Of a DNA stretch of 64,000 nucleotides, positions 6,493 through 43,214 are shown piece by piece. The translations under genes were made by a program, and so were the position numbers. Origin of the DNA: Pseudomonadota bacterium. Its GTDB lineage: Bacteria; Pseudomonadota; Gammaproteobacteria; JAJDOJ01. Every line of letters begins with the position of its first letter. The stretch's first letter is position 1. A model generated the notes under the pieces. It did not search any database. It saw only the letters and a list, made by a program, of their open reading frames with translations, and was not told the DNA's origin. The stretch is taken from positions 6,022 through 70,021 of the forward strand of contig JAYENI010000081.1 of assembly GCA_034722015.1 (NCBI GenBank), read 5' to 3'.

Positions 6493-6649
6493 GGCGACTT
6501 CTGTCAAATGACATACCATCCTGCTTGTCTTTTCGTCCGTCCTCTATGTTGTGACAACAGTTGCATAGTTCGACTATGCGCCTGTCGTCGCGCCTTGATG
6601 ACGAACGAAAATCCCGCGCGATCTGGTATGTCATTTTCCGGCAATCGCC
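6493..6649. repeat. MITE-like element copy 1 (~160 bp, terminal inverted repeats GGCGAyTTCTGTCAAATGACATACC ... GGTATGTCATTTTCCGGCAATCGCC)
   Basis: Near-identical sequence recurs at 14800, 29737, 32858, 34886, 47316 and 54677. The internal part is itself palindromic. Lies between ppx and the upstream gene. Confidence 0.85.
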
Positions 6650-8112
6650 TTGACTTCCTCGACCCGTTTGATTCCACTCCGGTTTAACACGATGCGAAAA
6701 CGTTTGTACAGCTCGCCACGAGAGGTCAAATACCGGATCACCAGACTGATGTGGTACACCTTGCTACCTGCCCCCCTGTAATACCGGTCGCCATCCACCA
6801 CGAAAACCGCCTTGTCGGGGTTATCCATCTTCCGGACGAACCTCGACATGCCCAGCCTCCAGATGTCCGTGATTCCGTCTATCGGTGTGTTCCGGTAAAC
6901 CTGCTCGAAGTTTCGGGAAAATATCGTCATGGATTTCCGGTAGAGAAAAACCTTTTCGCCTAACTGGTCGTTATCGATTCGGGTGATCGGGTCGCGATTC
7001 CTGAGTCTGCGAATCTCCGGCTGCAGTTTACTGTCGGACATGAACTGGAAGGCCTCCCTGCTGACACCCAGCTGATTTCCGCGCGACCCACCGCATATCT
7101 TTACTTTATGGTCGAAGAATCGGCTCTGTACCTTCTTGTTGACATAAAGGCGGACCAGTTCCTTGATTCGATCCTTGAACATGTAACTGACCACGAGGGC
7201 GACAAAGAACGCCATGGTGAAATTTCCGTATGTCTGCTGGGTCAGAAAAGCCACCGTCGTTGCAAAAACCATCGCCAGTCCGGCCGCCAGGCTGTAGACC
7301 ACCTGCTCGGTGATTCGACCCTCGGGGCGAACGCTCGTATCGAGAAACAGGATGCTTTCCATGAGCCTTTTCAGAACGCCGCGGCGATAAATAAACGCTT
7401 CATTGTCCGAGTCGGCAGTGGGTATTGACGGATAACCCTGTTCAATTCGGTACGTGACCTCTTCAGTGATGATATCGAGAAGCGCCTTTCTGTAGCCTCC
7501 AGGGTTGTCGTCAGAAAGTTTCCCGGTCTTTTCCAGAATGTCGAAAGTGAATTGTTCGACAGTTGTGCTGATGTATTCGTCGGCAAGCGCGTAGATGGAA
7601 CGAATCCTGTCGTCGATCGAGGGCAGGGCAACCATTTCACGAAGACTTCTGAACCTTGGAAGGATCGTTTCCAGGTTGGGCAGGTAGTGTTCAACCAGAT
7701 ATTCCGCATCCGTTGAATTGCGCGCATTTGCTATCAGGTCGACATGGTCTCGTATGGAACTTTTAAGGATGCAGCAGAACAACTTGATCTGGTTTTCGCA
7801 ATTCCTGATCGCCGCGTCTGACTTGTGATCGGTCAGGTCTTTAAGGGCGGTCTCCAGTGCGACAAACGGGCTGTCGACGGCAGAGGCGATGTCGCGTAGC
7901 AATACAGTCGGTAGCTTGAACCGGATATAGGTCTGAGTGTCCCTGTAGAACAGGTATTTCGGATAGGTATCCGGGTTGACGTCAAGGCTGTTGGGGACAA
8001 AGACAAACGCCTCGATCGCATAGGCTGTATGTTTCTGATCTTGCTCAAGCTTGTAATCCGACTTGATCTCGACCTGAAACTTTCCAGAGGTCCTTATGGT
8101 TTCTTCGATCAT
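6631..8112 (-). CDS. Hypothetical membrane protein (2 central TM helices), lower GC than surroundings
   Basis: 493-aa ORF with no recognisable family. TM segment VVYSLAAGLAMVFATTVAFL...FTMAFFVALVVSYMF. GC ~50% against ~62% background. The last 6 codons and the stop lie inside the MITE. Confidence 0.6.
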   Translation of the reverse strand: MIEETIRTSGKFQVEIKSDYKLEQDQKHTAYAIEAFVFVPNSLDVNPDTYPKYLFYRDTQTYIRFKLPTVLLRDIASAVDSPFVALETALKDLTDHKSDAAIRNCENQIKLFCCILKSSIRDHVDLIANARNSTDAEYLVEHYLPNLETILPRFRSLREMVALPSIDDRIRSIYALADEYISTTVEQFTFDILEKTGKLSDDNPGGYRKALLDIITEEVTYRIEQGYPSIPTADSDNEAFIYRRGVLKRLMESILFLDTSVRPEGRITEQVVYSLAAGLAMVFATTVAFLTQQTYGNFTMAFFVALVVSYMFKDRIKELVRLYVNKKVQSRFFDHKVKICGGSRGNQLGVSREAFQFMSDSKLQPEIRRLRNRDPITRIDNDQLGEKVFLYRKSMTIFSRNFEQVYRNTPIDGITDIWRLGMSRFVRKMDNPDKAVFVVDGDRYYRGAGSKVYHISLVIRYLTSRGELYKRFRIVLNRSGIKRVEEVKAIAGK

Positions 8113-10126: not shown

Positions 10127-11749
10127 TCAGTGTCGGCCACCATCCATGACATCGAGTATTGCTAGGGCGGATTTGGCGGCCTTCTCTATCTCCAGGGTGT
10201 CCTCCAGCCGTTTACCGTGGGGGTGGCTCTTCTCCAGCCGTTGCGCGTGCCTGGAGATACCGTGGAGCAGTTTGCTTAACTTTTTCTGCAACTCATCGGC
10301 CTGCGCCTGTCTGTCGCGCTGCGAATGTTCCAGTTCTTCCCAGGCCTCCGCTGCACGCATGGAGGATTTCCACCATTCCACGAGACGGGCCTTGTGATCC
10401 GCCATGATGTTGACCGACTGGGCCATGGCATTCACCTCATCGCGCCCCCCCGGGAGGGTGGGTATACGCTCTATGGGTTCTTCGAAAGCCAGTTGGTCCA
10501 GAAATCCGGCGATGCGCCATAAGGGGCGTGTGATGCTTAGTGTGATAATCACCGCCGATAGTATGCCCATCAGGGTTGCCAGACCTGCCAACCACAGCAT
10601 GAACCGGACATTTGTCGTGGAGGCGTTACGAATGCGTTCGATGCTCTCCTGCATCGCCTGCTCGGCGTACAGGCCGTTTTTCTGCACCAGTCGGGTTACT
10701 TCAGCAACCGTGTCGCGCATCTCGCCTTGCAGTCGGTCGATTTCCCTGTTCTGGTCGACCAGGGCGAGAAAGTCACGGCGGTAGTCGCTGAGCAGGCCTT
10801 CGAACGCATCCTTGTCCACTTCGGAAACGTCACAAATGTCGAGCTGATTTTGAATCCGTACCAGTTCCTGCAGTGCCATGCCGACGTACTGCTGGTCACC
10901 GCGCAGCAGGTAGTCCTTCTCCCTTCTCCGCAGCTGCAGGACGTTGTTACCCAGGTGCGGGATGTAGTGGCTGGAGATCGAGGCCTCGATACGATCGGCG
11001 GCCTCGCTGAAGGGACCCGTGCCCCCCTGGACCTCATCCTGGACCAGGACCGCTTCCGAATAGGCGAGGAAGGCCTCCCGGTAGACCCCCGACTCCCACA
11101 ACAGCGCCTGTTTCATTTCCGGTTCCAGGCCAGACGCATTAACCTGCGCCTCGAATGCACCGATCTGTCGCAATACCTCGTCGCGGTACAGTGCTTCCCG
11201 CCTGAGCCCCAGGTCCTTTTCCGCCTGCCGGATCTGCAGCAGTTTCAGGTACAGGTTACCGACCTTGAAGTGCTCGGCCCTGTCCTCCAGCACGTGCGCG
11301 GTGTCGCGGAATGCGCCCTGGAGACCGGAATTGTGGTCCAGCCCCTTGGTGCGCCAGGCCTCGGCGATCGCATCAAAAAGTTGCCGGTAGGTGCGCACCA
11401 GTTCGGAGATTCGTGCCGCGACCTCCGCGCCCTCGGTGTCAACTTGTGCCAGGGCCTCCGTCTCCGTCATAACGCCATGGAGAGATTCGGTCACCGCTGA
11501 CGCAGTTTCCTCGTTTCGGTACAGGAGAAACTCCTTCTCGGCGCGGCGCGCCTCGAGCATCTGTTTCTCGATACGCAGGGCATGGCCCCATTTTTCCGCG
11601 AACACCGCCTCCAACCTCTCGTAGTCGGAGAGGGTGTGTTGCAGGGTCTGGTGGTATTGCCAGATAACGGCGAGAAACAGAAGGCCCACGAGGCCGAAAC
11701 TGAGACCGATCTTTTCGCCGATGCGAAATTGCGAATAAAAATGTTTCAT
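10127..11749 (-). CDS. Membrane sensor with periplasmic CHASE3-like helical repeats and HAMP domain, no recognisable output domain
   Basis: TM1 at the N-terminus. Three repeated EK(E/D)(F/L/Y)LL motifs in the periplasmic part. TM2 followed by a HAMP-like segment (ITRPLWRIAGFLDQLA...NAMAQSVNIM) and a C-terminal coiled coil. No kinase or MCP signalling domain. Confidence 0.6.
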   Translation of the reverse strand: MKHFYSQFRIGEKIGLSFGLVGLLFLAVIWQYHQTLQHTLSDYERLEAVFAEKWGHALRIEKQMLEARRAEKEFLLYRNEETASAVTESLHGVMTETEALAQVDTEGAEVAARISELVRTYRQLFDAIAEAWRTKGLDHNSGLQGAFRDTAHVLEDRAEHFKVGNLYLKLLQIRQAEKDLGLRREALYRDEVLRQIGAFEAQVNASGLEPEMKQALLWESGVYREAFLAYSEAVLVQDEVQGGTGPFSEAADRIEASISSHYIPHLGNNVLQLRRREKDYLLRGDQQYVGMALQELVRIQNQLDICDVSEVDKDAFEGLLSDYRRDFLALVDQNREIDRLQGEMRDTVAEVTRLVQKNGLYAEQAMQESIERIRNASTTNVRFMLWLAGLATLMGILSAVIITLSITRPLWRIAGFLDQLAFEEPIERIPTLPGGRDEVNAMAQSVNIMADHKARLVEWWKSSMRAAEAWEELEHSQRDRQAQADELQKKLSKLLHGISRHAQRLEKSHPHGKRLEDTLEIEKAAKSALAILDVMDGGRH

Positions 11750-11766
11750 GGCCCGGGTCCGGTTCG

Positions 11767-13206
11767 CTATTGATTTCCGTTTCCATTGACAAAAGACAAG
11801 AGATTCTCCTGTCGGTAGCTTAGCGGGATCATCCGCCCCCGTACCCGGGTAAATACTCCGATCCAGGGTACGTTCGCACTAAAGACAATGTGGTGATTTT
11901 TTATGCCGCCAGCTTCGAGCCACCATGGGTGTTCCCGGTCCAGCGGGGAATGGCTGACGAAAAACGGTGTGCTCTCCGCGATACCCAGACCATCGCGAAA
12001 GTGTTTCACGTCGCCCCGTGTGTAGCCGGCCGGCAGGTTCCGCCGGCGGATCCGGTTGTGAGTCAGCTCCCTCACCAGGCCGGGGTGCCGGTAGATGTTG
12101 ATCAGCATGTCCAGAGTGAAACGCGTCTTTACCGGTGCGGCGTGGCAGGCCACGAAGTCCTCGGTCAGGACGAGATAGGGTAGCCGCTGGTAGAAGCGGC
12201 GCATCTCCGCCAGATAGGCTTCCCCCCGGCGGCCGCGCAAGGTGGACTCCCACATCAGGCACTGGGCCACGCCGAACTTGAACACACTGTCGGAAAAGCT
12301 GTCGTGGTTGCCCCGGACGTAGAACAGCCGCTGGGGGAAGCGCTGCTTCAGGCGCAGTATCAGGTCCATCATCAGCAGCGAGTCCTCCATTTCGTCCAGT
12401 TGGCCATCCATTTCCGAATGCACGGCATCGCCCAGTATGATCAGGGCGGCATCACCGTTCTCAAGCGCTTCGAGAAACCCGTTGTGACTGAGCAGGGTCA
12501 GGAGATTGTCCACCTGGGCGTGCAGATCGCCGACGATCACGGGGGTCAGCTCCCCGGGCAGGCGCAGCACGCCCCCCGGCGTGCCCCGGTCATCCAGCTG
12601 GCGATAGACCTCCGTTTCCAGGATCGCGTTCACCGCGCGCAAGCTGTCGAGCGCCTCTTCTGCGGCCAGCGGTTGAACAGGTCCACCAAAGAATTTGCGG
12701 ATCCTGTGCAGCTTTTCGAGTCGCCAGCCTTTGACTTTCTCGATGGTATCCGCCCGGGACACGGGACTGAGTTCGATCTCGGCATCGGACACCAGTGCCT
12801 TGAAGACCAGGGCGTCACCGTCGTGGGTGATGCTAAGCCTGCGCAGGTCCATGGTCTCGCGGTAGTTGAAGATGGCCGTTTGCAGTCTGTCGTGTTTTCC
12901 GATGACGATGGAGTCTCCGGGCTTTTCCAGGCGTAAAAAGCCGTTGATCCCCTTAAGGCACTGGTCAGGGGTGGTCAGCAGAAAAGACGTTTGCTCTTCT
13001 ATCGGAGGTCCTTGCAGGGGCAGTTCCGGGCAAACCAGCAGCTCGGTTCCGGCCCGCAGCAGGTTCACCCGAATGGGGGCGCGGTGGTGGATCACACGAA
13101 CCCGGCCCCTGCCCAGATGGTAGGGCTCGCGCAAACTGATCGCGGTCTGCCCTTCGGTGGGGGCGAACCGTGATTTCAGTCGTCCGAATATGCCCTTCTC
13201 TGTCAT
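11767..13206 (-). CDS. PPP-family (calcineurin-like) Ser/Thr phosphoesterase with N-terminal FHA-like/unknown domain
   Basis: Motifs VIVGDLHAQ, LGDAVHSE and RGNHD (GDxHG / GDxVDRG / GNHE-type). ORF trimmed to Met at 13206 to avoid overlap with the upstream P-loop gene. Confidence 0.7.
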   Translation of the reverse strand: MTEKGIFGRLKSRFAPTEGQTAISLREPYHLGRGRVRVIHHRAPIRVNLLRAGTELLVCPELPLQGPPIEEQTSFLLTTPDQCLKGINGFLRLEKPGDSIVIGKHDRLQTAIFNYRETMDLRRLSITHDGDALVFKALVSDAEIELSPVSRADTIEKVKGWRLEKLHRIRKFFGGPVQPLAAEEALDSLRAVNAILETEVYRQLDDRGTPGGVLRLPGELTPVIVGDLHAQVDNLLTLLSHNGFLEALENGDAALIILGDAVHSEMDGQLDEMEDSLLMMDLILRLKQRFPQRLFYVRGNHDSFSDSVFKFGVAQCLMWESTLRGRRGEAYLAEMRRFYQRLPYLVLTEDFVACHAAPVKTRFTLDMLINIYRHPGLVRELTHNRIRRRNLPAGYTRGDVKHFRDGLGIAESTPFFVSHSPLDREHPWWLEAGGIKNHHIVFSANVPWIGVFTRVRGRMIPLSYRQENLLSFVNGNGNQ

Positions 13207-13226
13207 TTCAACCGGGTTGGAGACAT

Positions 13227-13877
13227 TCAGCCGCGGGATCCCTGGAAGCGCGTCAGCCCGCCGTCCAGTCCCTCTCTTATATACAAGAGTATTCCATGGT
13301 GATGCAGATAACTGGCCGCGTTCCAAAGTGTATCCAGCTGCCTTTCAATCAATTCCCGATCGAAATGCTCGTCGACGCGATGGGTTTTTCTGCGTGCCCG
13401 CAGCCGGCGCTGTTCGCACAACGGTTTGGCCGGGGGCAGTATGAACTCGAAGACATATTTCCGGCGCCAGTCCCTGGACAGGACATGATGTTTTGGGGGA
13501 GGTATGGAAATTCGGGCGATATCCAGTTGCGGCGTTTCCTGGGCCTGTTCCCATTCCCTGTCGAACACCGCCAGGGACTCCGGGTAATCAACGAAGGGAA
13601 ATCCCAGGTGCACTTCCCGTGGACGCAGCGCCAGCATGCGTGAGGCCCACCAGCGTTTCAGGGCGAAATCCACGTAGCCCTCTTCCGGCCAACCGCCGAT
13701 TTGCCGGACCAGCGTGGACTTGCCGGATCCTGGCGGACCGGTGATGAGGAGTTGATGGATCTTCACGTCGGCGGGAAAGGCCATCCCCCGGAAGGTCTGC
13801 AGATTGGTGATCGTTTCGGTCTCGAAAGAACTCATCGATTCAATCCATGCGCACCCTAGGACTGCCACGGTCATCAA
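13227..13877 (-). CDS. P-loop NTPase of unknown family (paralog A)
   Basis: Walker A LITGPPGSGKSTLV. ~45% identity to the divergent gene at 13993-14799 across the whole length (shared W-W...RPRE-H--FPF...FD--W...LD--RI-IP-KK...WR--F-F-FILPP). Confidence 0.6.
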   Translation of the reverse strand: MMTVAVLGCAWIESMSSFETETITNLQTFRGMAFPADVKIHQLLITGPPGSGKSTLVRQIGGWPEEGYVDFALKRWWASRMLALRPREVHLGFPFVDYPESLAVFDREWEQAQETPQLDIARISIPPPKHHVLSRDWRRKYVFEFILPPAKPLCEQRRLRARRKTHRVDEHFDRELIERQLDTLWNAASYLHHHGILLYIREGLDGGLTRFQGSRG

Positions 13878-13992
13878 AGCGTAACATTTAAACGGTACGT
13901 TGATCTGCGGGGGTTTCTGCCTGCAGATTGAATAAACAAACGATGCAGCCGGGAAGTTCTGAACCGTACCGACAACAGGGTGTGTTCCTGCT

Positions 13993-14799
13993 ATGCTGCT
14001 TATTGATTACAGGATAGGGGCTCCTCCTCGATCCGCACTCCTTCTAGACCCCCCTGCCGGGAACGGGCGGACGATGAAACTGACTGACTGTCACGGTATT
14101 TCCTATCCGGCCAAGATGAAATTTGGAAGCTGGATCGTGGCGGGCCCGCCAGGATCCGGAAAGTCCTGGCTCATCGACCGGATCGGCGGCTACCCCGGAG
14201 AGGTCGGCATCGACATCTCCCAGGACAAATGGTGGACCGTTGAACCGCTGACCCACAGGCCCCGGGAGCTCCATTTCGCTTTCCCGTTCAAAGGACTCAA
14301 AGACGCCCTGTCGGTGTATGACGAACCCTGGCGGGGGCGCAGCGAGTTTCCCGAGCTGGATTTCGATCGCATACGCATTCCGAAGAAGAAGAAGTTTGTC
14401 CTGGCCCCCAACTGGCGCGCCCGTTTCGTATTCGATTTTATCCTTCCCCCCCCGACCTGGCTTTTCGAGAATCGGAAGAGGCGCCTGTCTTCGGGTGACG
14501 TTCGCCTGGTCGACATGGGATTGACGCAGGAGTGGATCGCCTGGCAGGTGCATATCCATTGGCAGGTCGCCTGGTTCTTCCACCAGTCTGGCCTGCAGGT
14601 GATGCTGCGGCCTTTCAATACCGCGCGCCCCTACTCCTTTCCGGTGCTCAGGAAGGTCTTGAAAAAGAAGGCCCAGGCCGCTGAGAAAGCAGTCAATCCC
14701 GAGATGGACTGGTCCAAGGTGAAGTTCGTCAAGCTGTGGTTCGATGAGGCCTCACCCGACAAGTGGAAATTTCAGCCGCTGTCGGAAAAAGCGGCCTAA
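13993..14799 (+). CDS. P-loop NTPase of unknown family (paralog B), with lysine-rich C-terminal extension
   Basis: Walker A IVAGPPGSGKSWLI. Paralog of 13227-13877 and divergently transcribed from it. Probable true start MKLTD at 14074. Confidence 0.6.
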   Translation: MLLIDYRIGAPPRSALLLDPPAGNGRTMKLTDCHGISYPAKMKFGSWIVAGPPGSGKSWLIDRIGGYPGEVGIDISQDKWWTVEPLTHRPRELHFAFPFKGLKDALSVYDEPWRGRSEFPELDFDRIRIPKKKKFVLAPNWRARFVFDFILPPPTWLFENRKRRLSSGDVRLVDMGLTQEWIAWQVHIHWQVAWFFHQSGLQVMLRPFNTARPYSFPVLRKVLKKKAQAAEKAVNPEMDWSKVKFVKLWFDEASPDKWKFQPLSEKAA

Positions 14800-14965: not shown

Positions 14966-16237
14966 TTAACCGCCGCCGAAGATACCCTTCAGGGTAAAGA
15001 AAAACAGCATCGCGAGCACGGCCCCGGCCGGGACCGTGATGATCCAGGAGATGACGATATCCCGGATCACGCGCAGGTCCAGGGCGCCGAGGCCCCGGGT
15101 CATGCCGACCCCCATCACCGCGCCCACGGCGATATGGGTGGTGGATACCGGCAGACCGGTCTTGGAGGCGAGCACCACGGTGGTGGCGGCCGCCAGGGTC
15201 GCGCAATAGCCGCGGGAGGGGGTGAGCTGTGTAATGCGCGTGCCGATGGTGCGCATCACACGATAACCCAGGGTGGCCAGGCCGAGCACGATGCCGACGC
15301 CGCCCAGCATCAGGACCCACAGCGGCATCTCCGCCTGCTGTGACACTTCACCGCCGCTTTGCACCAGGGCGATGACCGCCGCCAGGGGACCGATTCCGTT
15401 TGCCACGTCGTTGGAGCCGTGCGCGAAGGCCATGGCGCAGGCGGTAAATACCATCATCGGGACGAAGATCTTCTCCACCATGGCGAACTGGACGTCGCGG
15501 TCGGCGCTCTCCTCCACCGATACCTTGTCGATCATCATCTTTCCGATGAAAGCGATGATGACGCCCAGGATCGTGGCTGCAATGATGCTCTCAATCGGAG
15601 AAAGATCCAGGTTCAGGTGCTTGAGGCCCTTGAACATGGTCACCAGGCAAACGATCCAGCCCACGAGGAACACATAGAAGGGTCCCCATTTGCGCGCCTG
15701 CCGTACGGGATCGTCGGTACGCATGATCAGACGTTGCACGCTGATCATCAGAATGTATCCGAAAAATCCGCCCAGCAGCGGGGAGACCACCCAGCTGACC
15801 ACGATCTGGGTGATCTTCCCCCAGTTGACCGCGTCGACGGAAATGCCTACCAGGGCGAAGCCCACCAGGCCGCCGATGATGCTGTGTGTGGTGGAAACCG
15901 GCCAGCCGTTCCAGGAGGCCAGCATGAGCCAGATCGCGGCGGCCAGCAGGGCCGCCAGCATGCCGTAGACCAGAATTTCCGGGGTGCCGGCAATCATCTG
16001 CGGATCGATGATCCCCTTGCGGATGGTTTTGGTGACGTTGCCGCCCGCGATGAACGCCCCGGCGAATTCGAAGATCGCCGCGATGATGATGGCCTGCTTG
16101 ACCGTGATGCCGCCGGAACCCACCGAGGTGCCCATGGCATTGGCCACGTCGTTGGCCCCGATGCCCCAGGTCATGTACAGACCGAAGACGATGGCCAGGG
16201 TCAGAAAGACCGTGCTGTACTGAGCGATGATTTCCAT
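14966..16237 (-). CDS. pit: Inorganic phosphate transporter, PiT family
   Basis: GANDVANAMGTSVGSG (twice: GSNDVANGIGPLAAV), the PHO4/PiT signature. About 12 TM segments. Confidence 0.9.
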   Translation of the reverse strand: MEIIAQYSTVFLTLAIVFGLYMTWGIGANDVANAMGTSVGSGGITVKQAIIIAAIFEFAGAFIAGGNVTKTIRKGIIDPQMIAGTPEILVYGMLAALLAAAIWLMLASWNGWPVSTTHSIIGGLVGFALVGISVDAVNWGKITQIVVSWVVSPLLGGFFGYILMISVQRLIMRTDDPVRQARKWGPFYVFLVGWIVCLVTMFKGLKHLNLDLSPIESIIAATILGVIIAFIGKMMIDKVSVEESADRDVQFAMVEKIFVPMMVFTACAMAFAHGSNDVANGIGPLAAVIALVQSGGEVSQQAEMPLWVLMLGGVGIVLGLATLGYRVMRTIGTRITQLTPSRGYCATLAAATTVVLASKTGLPVSTTHIAVGAVMGVGMTRGLGALDLRVIRDIVISWIITVPAGAVLAMLFFFTLKGIFGGG

Positions 16238-16287: not shown

Positions 16288-16968
16288 TCAGCGCGCCACG
16301 AGCATGCGCATGCGGCTTCCCACCAGCTCGGCATGGTCAGCCAGCTCGCCCAGCCAGCGGGCGAGCTGGTAGGTGAAGATGGTGGAGACCGGGTCGGTGT
16401 CCTTGTGGTGCTGGTAGAGGTTGTTGACCACCTCGATGCCCAGCATGTCGGCGCCGTCCTCGCTCCTGGATACCTCGTCGATCAATTCGTAGACGCGGTC
16501 CAGGTCCGGGCCCTTGAAGCCCGTCTCTACCAGGGCGTCGAGCATCTTTATCACGTCCAGGGCCTTGTGCACGGTCTCCTGCGACTTGTTGGCCAGGGTA
16601 ATCAGCGGCTCTCGCAGTTCGCTCGAGACCTCCAGGTGGATCAGCAGCAGGCCGGCGATGTCCTGTGAGGTGTCCGCGATCTCCTCCTGTTCCCGCAGCA
16701 CGGCAATGACGTCGTGGCGGTGTACCGGTAGAAACTTGCTCTGGGACAGGCTGGAAGAGAGGCTGTCGAAGATTTCGTCGGCCTGGCTCTCCAGTTCGAA
16801 CACCTTCTCCCGGGCGCCCTGCAGGGCCTCTTCGTCCTCGTCGAACAGGGCGAGCAGCATGACGGGGACTTGTTCAACGCACTTCGATGCCAGTTTCATG
16901 TGCTTCTTAAGCGGCGGAAACGGGGAACCGCCCAATAGTTTCTTGAAGCTGATGGTCGTGGTCATGGT
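16288..16968 (-). CDS. DUF47 family PhoU-like phosphate transport regulator (PiT accessory protein)
   Basis: Co-oriented immediately upstream of pit, with the helical PhoU-like DUF47 pattern. Start taken at MTTTISFKK (16968), not the longer ORF. Confidence 0.8.
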   Translation of the reverse strand, partial: TMTTTISFKKLLGGSPFPPLKKHMKLASKCVEQVPVMLLALFDEDEEALQGAREKVFELESQADEIFDSLSSSLSQSKFLPVHRHDVIAVLREQEEIADTSQDIAGLLLIHLEVSSELREPLITLANKSQETVHKALDVIKMLDALVETGFKGPDLDRVYELIDEVSRSEDGADMLGIEVVNNLYQHHKDTDPVSTIFTYQLARWLGELADHAELVGSRMRMLVAR

Positions 16969-17705
16969 GTCGTTCCTCTCCTCGTTCGACGGGTTCACTC
17001 GTTCCGCCGGGCTTCGAGCGGGCTGGTCCGGCCGACCGATGCGATCAACATGGCGACCGTTGCGGATCTTCACGTAGGACGTGCCGGCCCCAATAACCTG
17101 AGTGCATGGAAATTATCATGCTATCGCACACTAACCTAGTTTTATTGGGCGATTTGTGCAAGCTGCCGGGGCCTGGAGAACAACGCCCGGAATGATCAAG
17201 AGCCTGCCCCATCGGTCTGTCGAGATTTTAGTCAGGTCGTCAACCGGGCCTGTGGCGCCGCGCGGTCGGCACACGGGCAATGGCGAAACAGGCCATGAAA
17301 AAAAAGTTTTGCCGTCAATCACATCGGGAAGCAGACAGCTCGTCCGCCGGGAAGTCATAGTAGAGAAACGCATTGAGCAGCCACGCCATCCCGATGCTCG
17401 TCACAGCGACCGGCAGCTTCATTGCAAAGTTGCGGATACGGACGGGATGGGTCTCCCCGGCCTTCATCTGCCGTTCCAGACAGATGCAGACGTTCAGGAA
17501 GGAACCGATGAGGACAGGGCTGTTCATGTCTGCCGTCATTTGCCTGTGATCGGGCATTTCCGGCGGCATTAAGGCCTCAGCCCGATGTCGTCCCTACGCG
17601 ACCATTGCAGGGAGCAGGTCCCTGTCAGGGACCTCTCGACACCTCTGGCAATTGCGCGGGCCGGGGAAGGTTGCGGGACGGTACGCCGTATACTGAATTG
17701 CTATT

Positions 17706-17724
17706 ATGACATGAATGTGACAAT
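17706..17724. promoter_or_regulatory. Putative Pho-box-like direct repeat (TGTCAC-N5-TGTCAT, 11-bp spacing)
   Basis: ATGACATGAATGTGACAAT in an AT-rich stretch ~100 bp upstream of nptA. Resembles PhoB-box half-sites CTGTCAT spaced 11 bp apart. Confidence 0.3.
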
Positions 17725-21966: not shown

Positions 21967-22092
21967 CGAACGACCAAAGCAAGACGACGAAACGGCTCCC
22001 TCGGGGGCCGTTTTTTGTCGGTCGAAAATAGTTGGTCAAACGCTCTCCGTGTGACCAGACCAGTCGGGCAGACTGGGGGAACCTGTTGAAAA

Positions 22093-22347
22093 ATGGAGGT
22101 TCTTGCAGTGAGGCTCAACGAATTACCCATCGAACGACTGGCGTACAGCCCGGCAGAGTTGGCTGTCGCGACGAGCATCAGCCGGGCACAAATCTACCTG
22201 CTCCTCAACCAACGAAAGATCCGGGCGAGGAAGCTCGGCAAGCGGACAATCATCCTGCGCGCGGATGCGGAGGACTTTCTCGGCCGTCTGGAGGAGATGG
22301 TGGTGGTCGATCCTTCACAGGAGACGGATACAGAGAGGGTTGCGTGA
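22093..22347 (+). CDS. AlpA-like HTH regulator / excisionase
   Basis: YSPAELAVATSISRAQIYLLLNQRKIRARKLGKRTIILRADAEDFL matches the Phage_AlpA/excisionase HTH pattern. Confidence 0.55.
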   Translation: MEVLAVRLNELPIERLAYSPAELAVATSISRAQIYLLLNQRKIRARKLGKRTIILRADAEDFLGRLEEMVVVDPSQETDTERVA

Positions 22348-22889
22348 TGGGCAAGCACCTGACCCCGCTGGATGTCAACGGCACAACCATACATAACCAG
22401 AGTCGCGAGATGTATTCGCTCAATGACCTGTGGGAGGCGAGCGGTGGGAGTAACAGGCACCGGCCCTCTCACTGGTTGAAGCTCAAGCACCCCAAAGAGG
22501 TCATAAAGGAGCTGGAAAACGAGAATCCAAATGCAGGAATCCCTGCAATTAAACCCGTCCAGATCATCGCCGGAAAGTACGGCGGTAGATCGGAGTCGTA
22601 TGCACTCCTCACCGAGACGCAGGCGTACTTCCTCCTGATGCTGTCTCGGAACTTGTCGCCGGAGGGGGGGGCGATGAAATCAATCGCACTGACCCGTGAG
22701 GGCACGTCGTTCCTCGCCGATTCGCGGATGCTCTCGGATCGGTTGAAAATCGCACATCATCAAGTGTACCGGACGATTCTGAAATATGAAGCCGATATTC
22801 GAGACCTCGAAGACGGTCGAATTCTTCGTTTTGAAAGCGAGAAAATAATCTCCGGTCGGGACGCCCGTGCATTGAGGAGAAGACGATGA
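22347..22889 (+). CDS. KilA-N-like domain protein (phage)
   Basis: N-terminal LNDLWEASGGSNRHRPSHWL resembles the KilA-N DNA-binding domain. TGATG overlap with the upstream gene. Confidence 0.4.
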   Translation: MGKHLTPLDVNGTTIHNQSREMYSLNDLWEASGGSNRHRPSHWLKLKHPKEVIKELENENPNAGIPAIKPVQIIAGKYGGRSESYALLTETQAYFLLMLSRNLSPEGGAMKSIALTREGTSFLADSRMLSDRLKIAHHQVYRTILKYEADIRDLEDGRILRFESEKIISGRDARALRRRR

Positions 22890-39893: not shown

Positions 39894-40163
39894 ATGGACT
39901 GGAAGGTGCTCGGACTGGTCTTCGGCACGGTGTTCGTCGCCGAACTGGGTGACAAGACGCAACTCGCCACCCTGCTGTTCGCGGCGGACAAGGACGTCGG
40001 CAAGTGGACGGTGTTTTTCGGCGCGTCCCTGGCCCTGATCGCCACCTCGGCCATCGGGGTGCTGGGCGGCGCCGTGATCTCGCAGTACGTGAGTGAGCGA
40101 ACCCTGCACGTCATTGCCGGGGTCGGGTTCATCCTCATCGGCGTCTGGACGCTGTTGCGGTAG
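39894..40163 (+). CDS. UPF0016 (GDT1/TMEM165-like) half-size membrane protein
   Basis: ELGDKTQLATLLFAA signature (E-x-G-D-K-T). 89 aa, 3 TM segments. Confidence 0.55.
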   Translation: MDWKVLGLVFGTVFVAELGDKTQLATLLFAADKDVGKWTVFFGASLALIATSAIGVLGGAVISQYVSERTLHVIAGVGFILIGVWTLLR

Positions 40164-40170
40164 CGGGTCG

Positions 40171-41388
40171 ATGAATAGCAATCTGCGCAACTATCTCGTC
40201 GTGACCGGTGGCTACTGGGCCTTCACCGTCACTGACGGCGCGATCCGCATGCTGGTGGTGCTGTATTTCCACCAGTTGGGCTATTCACCCTTCGAGGTGG
40301 CGATGCTGTTCGTGTTCTACGAGTTCTTCGGCATCGTCACCAATCTCGTCGGTGGCTGGCTCGGGGCGCGCATCGGTTTGAACCTGACCATGCACATCGG
40401 TATGGGGTTGCAGGTCCTCGCCCTCGGTCTGCTCGCGGTGCCGGACGCCTGGCTGTCGGTACCCTGGGTGATGGCGGCGCAGGCCCTGTCGGGCATCGCC
40501 AAGGACCTGAACAAGATGTCGGCCAAGGCAAGTGTCAAGATGCTGGCCGGCGACGGCGGGGAATCGAAGCTGTTCAAATGGGTGGCCGTGCTCACCGGAT
40601 CCAAGAACGCGCTGAAGGGCGCGGGTTTCTTCGTCGGCGCCGCCCTGCTGCAGTGGATCGGCTTTCGCGCCGCCCTGGCGGTGCTGGCGGGTTTGCTGCT
40701 GGTGGTGTTGATCGTCACTGCGGTCCTGTTGCCTTCCGGACTGGGCAGGATGAAGACCAAGCCGAAGTTCACCCAGGTTTTCTCGAAGGTGCCGGCGATC
40801 AACTGGCTGTCGGCGGCGCGCTTTTTCCTGTTCGGCTCGCGCGACGTCTGGTTCGTGGTCGGCCTGCCGGTGTTCCTCTATGACGTGCTGCACTGGGAGT
40901 TCATGTGGGTCGGTGGTTTCCTGGCCCTGTGGGTGATCGGTTACGGCTTCGTGCAGGTCTCCGCGCCGAGACTCATTCGGCACAGTCACCACGGACGTGG
41001 TCCGGGCGGCGGGACGGCTCGGCTGTGGGTCTTCGTGCTGGCGTTCCTGCCGGCTGGCATCGCCCTTGGGTTGGCGCAGGGGTGGGACCCCGCGACGGTC
41101 CTGATCGTCGGCCTGGTTCTGTTCGGGATCGTCTTCGCCATCAACTCTGCGGTGCACTCCTACCTGATCCTCGCCTATTCCGATTTCGACAAGGTGTCGA
41201 TGAATGTCGGTTTCTACTACATGGCCAATGCCGGGGGGCGGCTGACCGGCACGGTCCTTTCGGGCTGGGTTTATCAAACGCACGGGCTGGAGGGTTGCCT
41301 GTGGTGGTCGGCCGGTTTCGTGCTGATGGCGGCGATTCTTTCCTTTCCGTTGCCGGAGCCGGGCGAGCCGCGGGTGTCGACGGCCTGA
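40171..41388 (+). CDS. arsJ: ArsJ-like MFS transporter (organoarsenical/1-arseno-3-phosphoglycerate efflux)
   Basis: 12-TM MFS protein immediately downstream of GAPDH, as in characterised gapdh-arsJ pairs. Confidence 0.75.
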   Translation: MNSNLRNYLVVTGGYWAFTVTDGAIRMLVVLYFHQLGYSPFEVAMLFVFYEFFGIVTNLVGGWLGARIGLNLTMHIGMGLQVLALGLLAVPDAWLSVPWVMAAQALSGIAKDLNKMSAKASVKMLAGDGGESKLFKWVAVLTGSKNALKGAGFFVGAALLQWIGFRAALAVLAGLLLVVLIVTAVLLPSGLGRMKTKPKFTQVFSKVPAINWLSAARFFLFGSRDVWFVVGLPVFLYDVLHWEFMWVGGFLALWVIGYGFVQVSAPRLIRHSHHGRGPGGGTARLWVFVLAFLPAGIALGLAQGWDPATVLIVGLVLFGIVFAINSAVHSYLILAYSDFDKVSMNVGFYYMANAGGRLTGTVLSGWVYQTHGLEGCLWWSAGFVLMAAILSFPLPEPGEPRVSTA

Positions 41389-41507
41389 GCCGGAATCTCC
41401 GCGTCCCAGGGGGAGCGGACCCGCCGCCGGTCCGGTTCGCTTCAGGTGGAATCCTGGTGCGTCGGGATTTGCCACCGCGGACTGGCCCGTGCCGCCCGGA
41501 TCCGTGT

Positions 41508-43214
41508 TCAGTTCGATTCGGGGGGGATGTAGAGAATTCGCCGGTTGAAATGCCGGTCACCGTGATAGCTCGCGGTAATGTCCCCGTCTTCCAGGTCGAT
41601 GTCGGCGAAGAATTCCGCGTCACTTCGCCAGTCTGGCGAGAGGTAGATTTGCCGGGTGGAAGGGGTCCATCCGTGTTGAAAGTAGCCGATATCCCGGACG
41701 CTCGTTACGGATCCCTCGATCCGTTCAGCCGTCCTTGCGTCCATCGCGTACCAACCCGCCGGACCGACGTAGTAGTTCACGCCGTCTTCGTGTTGTCCGG
41801 AAATGCCGGTCTCGAACGATTTGTCGTCCGTGCCGATGAAGTCCTTGAAGAGATCGTCTTCACGCAACGTGGTGGTGAGCGAGATCGTTCGGCTGGCCGC
41901 CTTGGAGGGGTCGTAGTCGGCGTAATACACGATCTGGTATCTGAGCCGGTTCTCCTCCCCCGGGGGCGTATTCTCGTTGAAAAACGGGCGGTCCGGGGTG
42001 ATCGCCCGGTTCCCCGTCACGTTGCTAGAGACGTTGACCGGTTTGACGTAGGCTCTTGTCGTCCAGGATGCGGGAATTCCCAGTCCCAGGCGGGGGTCGT
42101 CCGCCAGGACGGTGACGGGGATGCGATGCTCGTTGACCGATACCTCCGCGTCGCCCGTGGACCAGGAAGCCATCAGGTTCTTGGGGATGGTTGCGGTCAC
42201 CTCGCCTGAGTTCCCGTATTGCGCATCGATCGCCACGTGATCGAAGCGGGACGGATCCGGGTTCATGACCGATTCGTCCAGAACGGGAAACTCTATCGTG
42301 ATCGTTCTTCCGTCGGCGACGATCAGTCCGTACGCGCCGATGCTTCCACCTCCATTGCGGGACAGGATCGTCGTAGCGCTGATCCTCTTCCAGATCTGCT
42401 CGGTAACCAGTTCGACGATGTCGCCCGCATGGTTGCGGATCGTGAACATCAGCCGGGTGGCGTCTTCGATGTCTGCCCGATACGCATCGATTGAAGGGTG
42501 GGGCGACGATCCGGTTACGAACAGATCGACCGGCCGGTACCTAAGGTCATCGTCCTGGCGGTTGTATCCGGCATAGATCGCCGCCACGGGACCGGACAGC
42601 ATCGCATCCCAGGGAGGGATCAATCGAGAGGCGTCCCTGGACGGCACGAAGGAGAGTACATCGTCGTAGTCGACGCTGCCGTCGCGATTGATATCGCCGA
42701 CCAGGGATTCCGACAGCGCGTCCAGTCTGCGGGCCAGTTCCCCGGGCGAGTATCGGGCGGGGTCGCCGATCGCGAAACCGGCGTAGTCGCTCACCGGGGT
42801 AACCATGACCGATCCCGCCTGCAACCGTCCCGCCGTCGCCAGGGCCTGGAAATATCCGTGGTTTCTCTCCGCCGAACCGGCATCGGTCCCTTGATCGACG
42901 CCCCCCGAGACCCGGACCTTCACCCATTCGTCCGGAGCAAGGGCGTCGAGTGGGAGTTCGAAGCGTCCGGCTTCTTCCGGACCGGCGTCGCCGCGCGAAT
43001 AGACAGGCCCGGCGATCGGGGCGCCGGAGATGGAGTAGGCCGTGATCTCCGCGCCGGTCAGGGCGGAGCGCAGAAATGCCTGGTTGGAAGGGGTGGCGGA
43101 ATCGTTCCCGGGGGGCTCGCTGACGGACGAGACCTCCCCACTATCACCGCCGCTGCAGGAAACCAGCAGAGCCGCTGCGAGCAATAAAAGAGCAAACTTC
43201 CTGAGGTACATCAT
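41508..43214 (-). CDS. Lipoprotein with dockerin/EF-hand-like Ca-binding motif, hypothetical
   Basis: Start at MMYLRKFALLLLAAALLVSCSGG (lipobox) rather than the 761-aa extended ORF. DINRDGSVDYDDV motif. Confidence 0.55.
   Translation of the reverse strand: MMYLRKFALLLLAAALLVSCSGGDSGEVSSVSEPPGNDSATPSNQAFLRSALTGAEITAYSISGAPIAGPVYSRGDAGPEEAGRFELPLDALAPDEWVKVRVSGGVDQGTDAGSAERNHGYFQALATAGRLQAGSVMVTPVSDYAGFAIGDPARYSPGELARRLDALSESLVGDINRDGSVDYDDVLSFVPSRDASRLIPPWDAMLSGPVAAIYAGYNRQDDDLRYRPVDLFVTGSSPHPSIDAYRADIEDATRLMFTIRNHAGDIVELVTEQIWKRISATTILSRNGGGSIGAYGLIVADGRTITIEFPVLDESVMNPDPSRFDHVAIDAQYGNSGEVTATIPKNLMASWSTGDAEVSVNEHRIPVTVLADDPRLGLGIPASWTTRAYVKPVNVSSNVTGNRAITPDRPFFNENTPPGEENRLRYQIVYYADYDPSKAASRTISLTTTLREDDLFKDFIGTDDKSFETGISGQHEDGVNYYVGPAGWYAMDARTAERIEGSVTSVRDIGYFQHGWTPSTRQIYLSPDWRSDAEFFADIDLEDGDITASYHGDRHFNRRILYIPPESN

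Follow-up and report, generated by a model that had tools for sequence, protein, structure and literature searches.

A P-loop protein and an FHA-like/PPP phosphatase paired beside the PhoU_div-PiT phosphate transport genes

Organization of the Locus

The window, that is, the whole stretch of 64,000 nucleotides that we analysed, carries on its reverse strand the genes of a PhoU_div (DUF47) protein, 225 aa long from an internal ATG (16288..16965, Pfam PhoU_div E 4e-38), and of a low-affinity phosphate transporter of the PHO4 family, PiT (14966..16237, 423 aa, Pfam PHO4 E 3e-124). The PhoU_div gene is the first of a conserved cassette, and its homologues lie 5' of PiT in related loci. On the same strand are encoded the P-loop protein A (13227..13835, 202 aa, identical to P0376/MEA3410783, with the Walker A motif GPPGSGKS at 13716-13739), a phosphatase matching Pfam Metallophos (11767..13206, 479 aa, identical to NCBI MEA3410782) and, 18 nt further downstream, an accessory membrane sensor (10127..11749, 540 aa). 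The gene of a second P-loop protein, B, is found on the forward strand (14074..14799, 241 aa, identical to P0001/MEA3410784, Walker A at 14143-14166).

A preliminary description of this DNA had listed the sensor, the phosphatase, A and B as four ORFs; all of them are present on the strands given there, and their starts were corrected. An ORF of 519 aa overlapping gene A was rejected as the phosphatase gene, the true start giving the 479-aa protein. Because of the new starts, the divergent region between A and B is 238 bp long (13836..14073), and the 115-bp divergent promoter proposed before holds for the maximal ORFs only. The 238-bp region presumably carries the promoters from which B and A-phosphatase-sensor are transcribed; neither a sigma-70 consensus nor a Pho box was found in it, and promoter and terminator scans were uninformative. 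The flanking genes named previously were recovered by Pfam as SulP, PiT (PHO4), PhoU_div, Ppx-GppA and Na/Pi cotransporter.

The Conserved Core

The phosphatase gene lies directly downstream of A in 50 of the 51 testable metagenome loci, with a median gap of 78 nt. Moreover, natural fusions of P-loop, FHA-like and Metallophos domains (664-726 aa, e.g., P0236-P0254) occur in other lineages, and in a Vicinamibacteria locus (L015) the start of the fusion overlaps the stop codon of PiT. The suspected partnership was thus well founded: P-loop A and the FHA-like/PPP phosphatase together make up a single functional unit, an obligate pair.

This pair stands beside PhoU_div-PiT in all 54 informative metagenome loci, in two gene orders, collinear or convergent, and is distributed among Gamma-, Alpha-, Beta- and Deltaproteobacteria and Acidobacteriota. 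The link to PiT was also observed in Thiodiazotropha, Thiosymbion, Rhabdochromatium, Vicinamibacteria, Kiloniellales and Ca. Dechloromonas phosphorivorans, and phosphatase paralogues without a P-loop partner are also without PiT. A conserved neighbourhood is clearly present, and the connection to phosphate suggested at the outset is borne out by the adjacency of PiT in the 54 loci and in those of Alphaproteobacteria, Betaproteobacteria and Acidobacteriota. The A-phosphatase unit is to be grouped with the phosphate transport pair PhoU_div-PiT. Instead of the four genes between 10127 and 14799, the core is therefore PhoU_div-PiT-A-phosphatase, and it reaches about 16965, outside that interval.

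Ppx, Na/Pi cotransporter and Usp genes abound in the window locus and in related ones. The carriers of the cassette include sulfur-oxidising, magnetotactic and polyphosphate-accumulating bacteria, which are known to take up and release phosphate as redox conditions change; among them, Ca. Dechloromonas phosphorivorans reportedly accumulates polyphosphate.

Accessory Genes

P-loop B, a lineage-specific paralogue of A, is encoded antisense to its neighbours PiT and A, between which its gene was inserted. Of 80 metagenome loci, 4 have B together with A, and B does not form part of the unit to which it had been assigned. The same insertion is seen in L001, L024, L026, L060 and L073. B-type genes found elsewhere stand alone in unrelated contexts, with no phosphatase nearby. 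One B homologue directly follows a short Ppx-GppA gene.

The sensor has two transmembrane segments (residues 10-32 and 381-405), on either side of three helical periplasmic repeats of about 100 aa with the motif R-x-[AR]-E-K-[DE]-x-[LG]-L at residues 68, 174 and 274, which match one another by pairwise BLAST with E values of 1e-4 to 3e-2. A putative HAMP region follows (residues 402-451, nt 10397-10546), whose Pfam score of 19.1 bits falls short of the cut-off (25); the orthologues score 23.4-27.1 bits at the matching position. The C-terminal part is a coiled coil of about 90 aa, and some orthologues end about 20 residues past HAMP. No MCPsignal, HisKA/HATPase, kinase or GGDEF output domain was detected with Pfam and NCBIfam. 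Thus, the three repeats and the output-less character described earlier stand, whereas the term CHASE3-like was not confirmed by a profile, CHASE3 having no Pfam match at E <= 0.1; the only resemblance to CHASE3 lies in the internal R-x-x-E-K-[DE]-x-L-L repeat.

These observations bear on the earlier reading, in which sensor, phosphatase, A and B would form a sensor-driven module for phosphate or sulfate status. The position of the sensor gene in the window, co-oriented with that of the phosphatase and close behind it, is consistent with such a module, as are the orthologues near the cassette (L001/2, L008, L012, L019 and L042), in three different arrangements. However, of 80 metagenome loci only one has the sensor with the cassette, as have five other loci, and the sensor was seen in none of the 24 loci where the sequence continues for 2 kb or more past the phosphatase; B is present in 4 of the 80. 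The link to sulfate fails, SulP lying near the pair only in the window and in one other locus. The sensor recurs but is uncommon, accessory and not core, and, since none of the three is conserved, the core works without sensor, B and SulP. We consider a four-gene module quite improbable; it is largely refuted as a conserved unit, and the arrangement could be a lineage-specific elaboration.

The Phosphatase

The N-terminal extension reported for the phosphatase is present, with about 220 aa before the catalytic domain, not about 280. It includes, at about residues 60-165 (nt 12712-13029, reverse strand), an FHA-like beta domain and then a helical linker, which leads to a binuclear metallophosphatase domain of PPP type (about residues 215-479, nt 11770-12564, reverse strand; Pfam Metallophos E 3e-9). 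The PF00149 profile gave 38 bits for the window protein (cut-off 21.5) and matched 59 of 59 homologues. The motifs GDLHA, GDAVHSE and GNHD, all confirmed, stand where the PPP signature has GDxHG, GDxVDRG and GNHE, the DRG of motif 2 being replaced by H-S-E. The metal ligands (D, H, D, N and H residues) are invariant, and this holds for all six ligands and for the GNH[DE] histidine. Sequence matches in the PDB were to PP1/BSU1-type PPPs only. In a Foldseek search against the PDB, for which the query was the model of the fused homologue P0236 and not the window protein, the best 50 matches were all PP1, PP5, PP2A, PPZ or calcineurin (E 1e-13 to 1e-11, target-normalised TM about 0.7), with no ApaH or other small-molecule phosphoesterase among them. 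By its predicted fold, the phosphatase is PPP-like, closest to PP1/PP5.

The Pfam FHA profile did not match the window phosphatase and was sub-threshold in 11 of 59 homologues, with a best E of 3.4e-4. The family consensus has the FHA motifs LGR..D, (S/A)xRH and DL.S..GT, and AlphaFold predicted residues 240-360 of P0236 to form an all-beta domain (pLDDT about 80-89). The window protein and its closest relatives have GK for GR, RRL for SxxH and SDAE for SxxGT. Judged by these motifs, the FHA-like domain is divergent in the family and degenerate in the window copy, in which, as the canonical residues are lost, docking on phospho-threonine may not operate.

The P-Loop Proteins

Over 178 aa, A and B share 39% identity (E 4e-44), less than the 45% estimated before. 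The scaffold WW / RPRE-H / PF / IP / FVF[DE]F-LPP, already pointed out, is real in both proteins and conserved across the whole P-loop family. The homologue set of A comprised 543 proteins, and conservation was counted on 38 sequences. The conserved positions are K39, D56, WW62-63, RPRE71-74, the Walker B E130, R143, R146 and D155: K39 was found in 38/38 sequences (100%), S/T40 in 38/38, the Walker B acid at position 130 in 37/38 (97%), D56 in 35/38 (92%), R143 in 36/38 (95%) and R146 in 38/38 (100%). The family has both the Walker A GxxGxGK[ST] and the Walker B hhhh[DE] of the P-loop kinase class, together with putative LID-type arginines and, after strand 2, a putative catalytic Asp. In the AlphaFold model of B (pLDDT 94.1), R143/R146 are placed on helix 128-140 and D56 after strand 41-48; B carries a structured C-terminal extension of about 50 aa.

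No relative of the P-loop family was found in Pfam, NCBIfam or the PDB sequences, where matches were confined to Walker A. Foldseek with the P-loop model gave no significant kinase, the best E values being 0.01 (PDB) and 0.02 (BFVD) with TM 0.3-0.4, and the sole structural neighbours, all weak, were nucleotide, gluconate and shikimate kinases. These proteins thus fit no characterised kinase family in these searches, as had been claimed. The family has no GTPase specificity motif, and the anti-phage defence models of PADLOC gave matches of Walker A length only, with E of at least 1e-4. Fusions of the P-loop protein to GAF domains have a hydrophobic C-terminal tail resembling a membrane anchor, which would fit targeting of these relatives to the membrane, and one GAF-fused homologue adjoins SbcCD. 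Fusions to a J-domain also exist.

The weak structural neighbours, all nucleotide or sugar kinases, would agree with a pair acting on a phosphorylated metabolite, polyphosphate or nucleotides and buffering cytoplasmic Pi at the transporter, or with a P-loop ATPase energising PiT as ArsA does ArsB. The abundance of Ppx, Na/Pi cotransporter and Usp genes, the B homologue behind Ppx-GppA, the occurrence in Ca. Dechloromonas phosphorivorans and the degenerate FHA-like domain of the window point the same way. Nevertheless, we regard this possibility as doubtful: the phosphatase fold is nearest to PP1/PP5/PP2A, with no ApaH-type enzyme in the best 50 matches, and the phosphopeptide-binding motifs of FHA are kept in the family consensus, while fusion to a phosphatase would be unexpected for an ArsA-like energising subunit.

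Very improbable, in our opinion, is a Pnkp-type function, in which a nucleic-acid end-healing 5'-kinase and 2',3'/3'-phosphatase would neighbour PiT incidentally. The domain grammar is similar, with kinase and phosphatase fused: in bacterial Pnkp, a P-loop kinase is linked to a metallophosphoesterase resembling lambda phosphatase, while human PNKP combines FHA, phosphatase and P-loop kinase. The homologue beside SbcCD would also suit this function. By contrast, PiT is adjacent in every informative locus, a ligase/Hen1 partner is absent from every locus examined, the Pfam AAA_33 match covers residues 44-60 only, i.e., Walker A, and the structural matches are to PP1/PP5, not to Pnkp or lambda phosphatase.

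Proposed Role in Phosphate Transport

The explanation that we prefer, tentatively, is that the phosphorylation state of the PhoU_div/PiT complex is governed jointly by A, as a kinase-like ATPase, and by the FHA-PPP phosphatase; the A-phosphatase pair probably switches phosphate transport on or off. A would be a small ATP-dependent phosphotransferase with a P-loop kinase-type core comprising Walker A and B, in which the Asp just after strand 2 would hold the position of the catalytic base and the two arginines conserved on the helix that follows strand 4 would correspond to those of a kinase LID. The PPP protein would be the phosphoprotein phosphatase opposing A, docked on phospho-threonine by the FHA-like domain in most family members. 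Together they may set the phosphorylation of a PhoU_div/PiT component, or of each other, and this state would gate metal-phosphate/H+ transport post-translationally. The window lineage would have gained two inputs, namely the divergently transcribed paralogue B and the membrane sensor with its periplasmic triple repeat, HAMP and coiled coil.

On the other hand, the P-loop protein might not be a kinase but an NTPase serving the regulation or assembly of the phosphatase, e.g., an ATP/ADP-state switch or a metal-loading factor; another kinase, for example of Hanks type, would phosphorylate PiT/PhoU_div, and FHA-PPP would remove the phosphates. We deem this unlikely. In its favour, the P-loop protein is strictly paired, and also fused, with the phosphatase and lacks a recognisable substrate-binding domain or a significant kinase match. 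PPP enzymes require two metal ions, the marks that FHA domains read are normally the work of Hanks kinases, and the J-domain fusions hint at a chaperone-like context, all of which would favour an NTPase of this sort. However, the conserved Asp after strand 2 and the R-x2-R helix characterise phosphotransferases more than switch NTPases, the family is without a GTPase specificity motif, and B-type paralogues exist with no phosphatase nearby.

Comparison with Known Systems

The A-phosphatase pair is uncharacterised, and its P-loop family is without a database entry. As in PhoU/PstSCAB and the DUF47 (PhoU_div)-Pit pairs, a cytoplasmic accessory protein, thought to be modulatory, lies beside a phosphate transporter; unlike the Pit systems described in the searched literature, for which no P-loop or phosphatase component was reported, the present one has both. 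With the PPP Ser/Thr phosphatases PP1, PP5, PP2A, PPZ1 and calcineurin the phosphatase would have the binuclear metallophosphoesterase fold in common. It differs from them in motif 1, which ends in Ala instead of Gly, and in motif 2, where an invariant His replaces the second Asp and, GDAVHSE standing in place of GDxVDRG, the phosphate-binding Arg is absent; it also adds the N-terminal FHA-like domain, the helical linker and the obligate P-loop partner.

The P-loop kinases (NMP, gluconate/shikimate, T4 Pnk-type and Zeta toxin), a class reportedly set out by Leipe, Koonin and Aravind in 2003, have in common with A and B Walker A, the hhhh[DE] Walker B, the Asp after strand 2 and the two helix arginines. 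The A/B family, by contrast, matches them in sequence at Walker A alone and has an N-terminal beta-hairpin, the invariant WW and RPRE-H motifs and a poorly structured insert of about 50 residues between strands 3 and 4. The BY-kinase systems of Firmicutes (YwqC/D/E), in which a two-TM membrane modulator, a cytosolic P-loop kinase and a metal-dependent phosphatase act together, may offer an analogy to the putative single operon of the window, with its two-TM protein bearing a large external domain, soluble P-loop protein and metallophosphatase. BY-kinases, however, resemble MinD/ParA and bear a Walker A' motif as well as a Tyr cluster at the C terminus, for which no match was found in the window. 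Their phosphatase is PHP or LMW-PTP; in the window the phosphatase is of PPP type and the membrane protein is not core. Finally, HprK/P and PpsR (DUF299) are P-loop protein Ser/Thr kinases with an opposing phosphorylase activity built in. A, as proposed here, would resemble them in coupling protein phosphorylation by a non-Hanks P-loop enzyme to the reverse reaction; it has no Pfam Hpr_kinase or Kinase-PPPase match and, unlike in those enzymes, the reverse reaction would be entrusted to a separate or fused PPP hydrolase.

Layout of the Locus

On the minus strand of the window the genes follow one another in the order PhoU_div (DUF47, 16288-16965), PiT (PHO4, 14966-16237), the P-loop protein A (13227-13835, 202 aa), a PPP-like phosphatase (11767-13206, 479 aa) and a HAMP membrane sensor (10127-11749, 540 aa); B, the paralogue of A (14074-14799, plus strand, 241 aa), lies antisense between PiT and A, with PiT and then PhoU_div on its far side. 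All the genes named in the preliminary description are present in the region, and their starts were corrected by means of identical database proteins (P0376 for A, NCBI MEA3410783; P0110 for the phosphatase; P0001 for B, NCBI MEA3410784). The stop codon of A is 20 nt from the start codon of the phosphatase, the stop of the latter is followed after 17 nt by the start of the sensor, and the divergent A and B genes are separated by a spacer of 238 bp. At a greater distance a Na/Pi cotransporter, SulP and Ppx/GppA are encoded.

The scan for sigma-70 promoters and terminators gave a signal no better than that of shuffled sequences, while the window-wide Pho-box search returned 3 matches, against 4 expected by chance, and none in the A/B intergenic region; no RNA family of Rfam was found within the window. 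Two weak Pho-box-like sites (17533-17550 and 17706-17723, with 2 and 3 mismatches, respectively) are present where 860 bp separate PhoU_div from the Na/Pi cotransporter gene. Between ppx and sulP runs a 493-aa ORF (6631-8112, minus strand) that belongs to no Pfam or NCBIfam family and does not adjoin the cassette in other loci; the middle part of its product looks hydrophobic by eye. Elsewhere in the window, the segment 22000-26000 has a G+C content of 0.53-0.55, compared to about 0.60 in the rest, and includes an ORF with KilA-N and Rha phage-regulator domains (22032-22889); it may be a small mobile-element remnant. The stretch 40001-42000 has a strongly negative AT skew (-0.28) and long ORFs overlapping on both strands, and tandem repeats were not found in it.

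Conservation of the PhoU_div-PiT-A-Phosphatase Cassette

The order PhoU_div-PiT-A-phosphatase was observed in Ca. Thiodiazotropha (L008, with the sensor next), Ca. Thiosymbion (L012), Rhabdochromatium marinum DSM 5261 (L013) and a Vicinamibacteria MAG of the Acidobacteriota (L015), in which a 705-aa ORF comprises both A and the phosphatase, its start overlapping the stop codon of PiT. A convergent form, with A-phosphatase facing PiT-PhoU_div, is found on a 6-Mb metagenome contig (L018) and in a Kiloniellales MAG (L019), and in Ca. Dechloromonas phosphorivorans (L011) A-phosphatase is followed by a divergent PiT-like gene and an ORF that is DUF47-like by eye. The scan of genome contigs, saturated by a generic Walker A as its pattern, gave only 7 loci. 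The metagenome scan used two family-specific peptides, RPRE[VI]HLG and GGWPxEGY, taken from A-type sequences only, and found 434 relatives; the 80 best loci among them were compared with the window proteins by tblastn. In 50 of the 51 loci with enough sequence, A was followed immediately by the phosphatase, at a median gap of 78 nt. Moreover, PiT adjoined the A-phosphatase pair in all 54 informative loci (37 collinear, 17 convergent; none without PiT, and 24 further loci too short to judge). This sample is biased to relatives with an identity of 52% or more over the 91-aa query; the individually fetched loci of distant lineages agree with it.

The neighbourhood of the genes singled out at the outset is strongly conserved, and we consider this evidence decisive. 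A and the phosphatase are one unit, and its link to PhoU_div-PiT persists from phylum to phylum and through gene-order rearrangements; the cassette of four genes is conserved and horizontally mobile. Its carriers include the genome of R. marinum DSM 5261, and for Sedimenticola thiotaurini it was seen only in a MAG assigned to the species. One metagenome contig (L073, 2006-9282) has two PhoU_div-PiT pairs flanking the B, A and phosphatase genes.

Phosphatase paralogues with no P-loop partner (L009, L010 and a second copy in L008) also have no PiT, and are followed by a conserved protein of about 255 aa. In L008 (8001-10175) and L009 (8001-10245), where the paralogues are of the FHA-like/PPP type, this protein has no Pfam family, and with the phosphatase it may constitute another partner system, distinct from the first.

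B, the Sensor and SulP

The preliminary description had joined sensor, phosphatase, A and B in a four-gene signalling module possibly linked to phosphate or sulfate. The four genes are real, but the conserved unit is PhoU_div-PiT-A-phosphatase, and B and the sensor are lineage-specific add-ons. Among the best 80 metagenome loci and the fetched ones, the antisense placement of B between PiT and A is restricted to close relatives of the window (L001/L002, L026, L073), while in L024 and L060 it accompanies A on contigs ending short of PiT. Elsewhere B-type genes are solitary and in unrelated contexts (L003, L006, L020, L022). In L004 (7060-8750) and L005 (5754-7444) a B-type gene is found 50 nt downstream of a short Ppx-GppA gene (296 aa), a second phosphate-related context for the P-loop family.

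The sensor has TM segments at residues 10-32 and 381-405, and its periplasmic region of about 350 aa consists of three repeats of about 100 aa, each with the motif R-x-[AR]-E-K-[DE]-x-[LG]-L (at 68, 174 and 274; inter-repeat BLAST E 1e-4 to 3e-2). Its HAMP domain scores weakly in the window and reaches or exceeds the threshold in orthologues; a coiled coil of about 90 residues follows. An output domain was not found, as already noticed from the sequence; the proposed likeness to CHASE3 was not confirmed, with no match to the CHASE3 profile, and no solved relative was found. The sensor is near the cassette in six distinct loci with three arrangements (window, L001/2, L008, L012, L019, L042), in only 1 of the best 80 metagenome loci, and in none of the 24 with at least 2 kb after the phosphatase. 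SulP is near the pair only in the window and in L011; it is not conserved, and the link to sulfate was rejected.

A P-Loop Family with No Match to Characterised Kinase Families

A and B are 39% identical (E 4e-44). Their Pfam and NCBIfam matches are confined to about 20 residues around Walker A, and profile searches of all PDB sequences likewise gave nothing past this region. The family is compact and mostly known from metagenome-derived sequences (clusters at 90% identity: 543 matching the A query and 109 the B query), its named sources including Sedimenticolaceae, Chromatiaceae, Ca. Thiodiazotropha, tubeworm endosymbionts, Kiloniellales, Magnetococcales and Desulfobulbaceae. In a 38-sequence alignment of the domain spanning all subtypes, G33, G38, K39, W62, W63, P72, P80, R146 and A174 are invariant, and S/T40, D56 (35/38), R73, E74, H76, R143 (36/38) and D155 (37/38) are conserved in at least 90% of the sequences. 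An acid at position 130 closes the hydrophobic strand [FY]-V-F-[ED]-F in 37 of 38, and is a classical Walker B. Both window copies retain all these residues.

The AlphaFold2 model of B (77-sequence alignment; pLDDT 94.1, pTM 0.91) starts with a beta-hairpin, followed by the P-loop strand and helix, a strand (41-48) ending at the conserved Asp, a strand (65-71) beginning at RPRE and a loosely structured insert of about 50 residues; then come the Walker B strand (120-124), a helix (128-140) with both arginines, a long helix and the last strand, with two extra helices in B only. Foldseek of this model against PDB and viral models gave nothing significant, the best matches being archaeal adenylate kinase, gluconokinase, hCINAP, UMP and thymidylate kinases (E 0.01-0.1, TM 0.3-0.4). 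In our reading, motif grammar and these weak structural neighbours suggest a core of the P-loop kinase class, too divergent for assignment to any characterised family. The absence of APS kinase, HprK and Zeta toxin likeness claimed earlier was borne out by the profiles; PPK2, PhoH and BY-kinase were rejected in the same way. PADLOC found nothing, and a role as a defence system was rejected. Since GAF-only proteins filled the lower ranks of the profile search of 1.84 billion representatives, the alignment of which included GAF-fused members, no remote P-loop relatives could be read from it.

This search and Pfam revealed three types of fusion. The first, P-loop with FHA-like and Metallophos domains (664-726 aa, at least 15 representatives), is a Rosetta-stone link of A to the phosphatase. 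The second joins an N-terminal DnaJ J-domain to the P-loop domain (about 310 aa; P0253, P0257, P0263, P0268), and the third, mainly of Magnetococcales, is P-loop-GAF with a hydrophobic C-terminal tail (P0092-P0109 and L007 8001-9314). In L007, SbcD/SbcC come after this gene, and a Usp gene and a Na/Pi cotransporter are 3 kb away from it. At NCBI, A, B and many homologues go under 'serine/threonine protein phosphatase', although a phosphatase domain is missing from A and B. Possibly this name was carried over from the fused proteins; it looks like a misannotation, as does 'EcfA2', the JGI name of some homologues.

As the main alternative, the P-loop protein could serve the phosphatase as nucleotide-state regulator or maturation factor instead of being a kinase; we regard this as rather unlikely.

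The Phosphatase

The only Pfam match of the phosphatase is Metallophos, and among solved structures its sequence resembles detectably only those of PPP Ser/Thr phosphatases, BSU1 and PP1 being examples (E 1e-4 to 1e-2). For the model of a natural fusion (P0236, pLDDT 85), the top 50 Foldseek matches were all PPZ1, PP1, PP5, PP2A and calcineurin (E about 1e-13, target TM about 0.7). The metal ligands D227, H229, D260, N300, H355 and H419 (window numbering) are invariant in 59 homologues, as is H301 of GNHD; A and the phosphatase both keep their catalytic residues. Because motif 2 is GDAVHSE in place of GDxVDRG, the enzyme is a PPP-like variant.

The N-terminal 220 aa or so form, in the P0236 model, an all-beta domain and two long helices. 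The only other Pfam family recurring across the homologues is FHA, always sub-threshold (11/59, best E 3.4e-4), and the family consensus L-G-R-x-D ... (S/A)-x-R-H-L-x-I ... D-L-x-S-x-x-G-T follows the FHA motif pattern, at whose positions the window protein and its closest relatives have G-K, R-R-L and S-D-A-E. The domain appears FHA-like, with phospho-threonine-binding residues not conserved in the window lineage: at 12712-13029 (residues ~60-165) it has lost GR, SxxH and SxxGT, which the other family members keep. The lineage has either given up reading phospho-threonine or put the domain to another use.

A small-molecule or polyphosphate role of the pair, which we consider improbable, and a Pnkp-like nucleic-acid role, which is highly improbable, fit less well with the resemblance of the fold to PP1, with the FHA motifs and with the invariable presence of PiT; RNA repair of the Pnkp type was rejected on context and fold neighbours.

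Proposed Function and Comparison with Known Systems

Built around a P-loop family without a database entry, the pair is an uncharacterised accessory of a phosphate transporter and probably has a regulatory role. Tentatively, we propose that A would transfer phosphate from ATP, that the phosphatase would reverse this transfer, and that the target would be within the PiT/PhoU_div system. It seems doubtful that the P-loop family is an unrecognised class of bacterial protein kinases, unrelated to Hanks, HprK and BY kinases, forming with its dedicated FHA-PPP phosphatase the first known phospho-switch directly on PiT or PhoU_div; if true, this would explain the rapid switching between phosphate uptake and release in sulfur-oxidising and in polyphosphate-storing bacteria.

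The regulation of the low-affinity PiT/Pit transporters is poorly understood and, to our knowledge, only transcription and a vague role of the DUF47 partner have been described so far. A full-text literature search found no paper on this cassette or on a P-loop/phosphatase partner for Pit. The cassette, in which PhoU_div-PiT is joined by an ATP-binding enzyme and by a protein phosphatase, points to post-translational control of phosphate flux, of relevance for polyphosphate cycling in sediments, in marine invertebrate symbionts and where phosphorus is removed from wastewater. A P-loop family that neither Pfam nor NCBIfam contains is also defined here, and the hypothesis is directly testable because cultured carriers exist.

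Among known systems, the PPP enzymes are structurally nearest to the phosphatase, which is predicted to work likewise, but its motif 2 departs from the canonical one. The P-loop protein shares its grammar with the P-loop kinases, whereas every family-level test failed. As a pair, the two resemble, by analogy only, P-loop protein kinase/phosphatase pairs such as HprK/P and the BY-kinase operons, the latter of which also include a two-TM membrane modulator.
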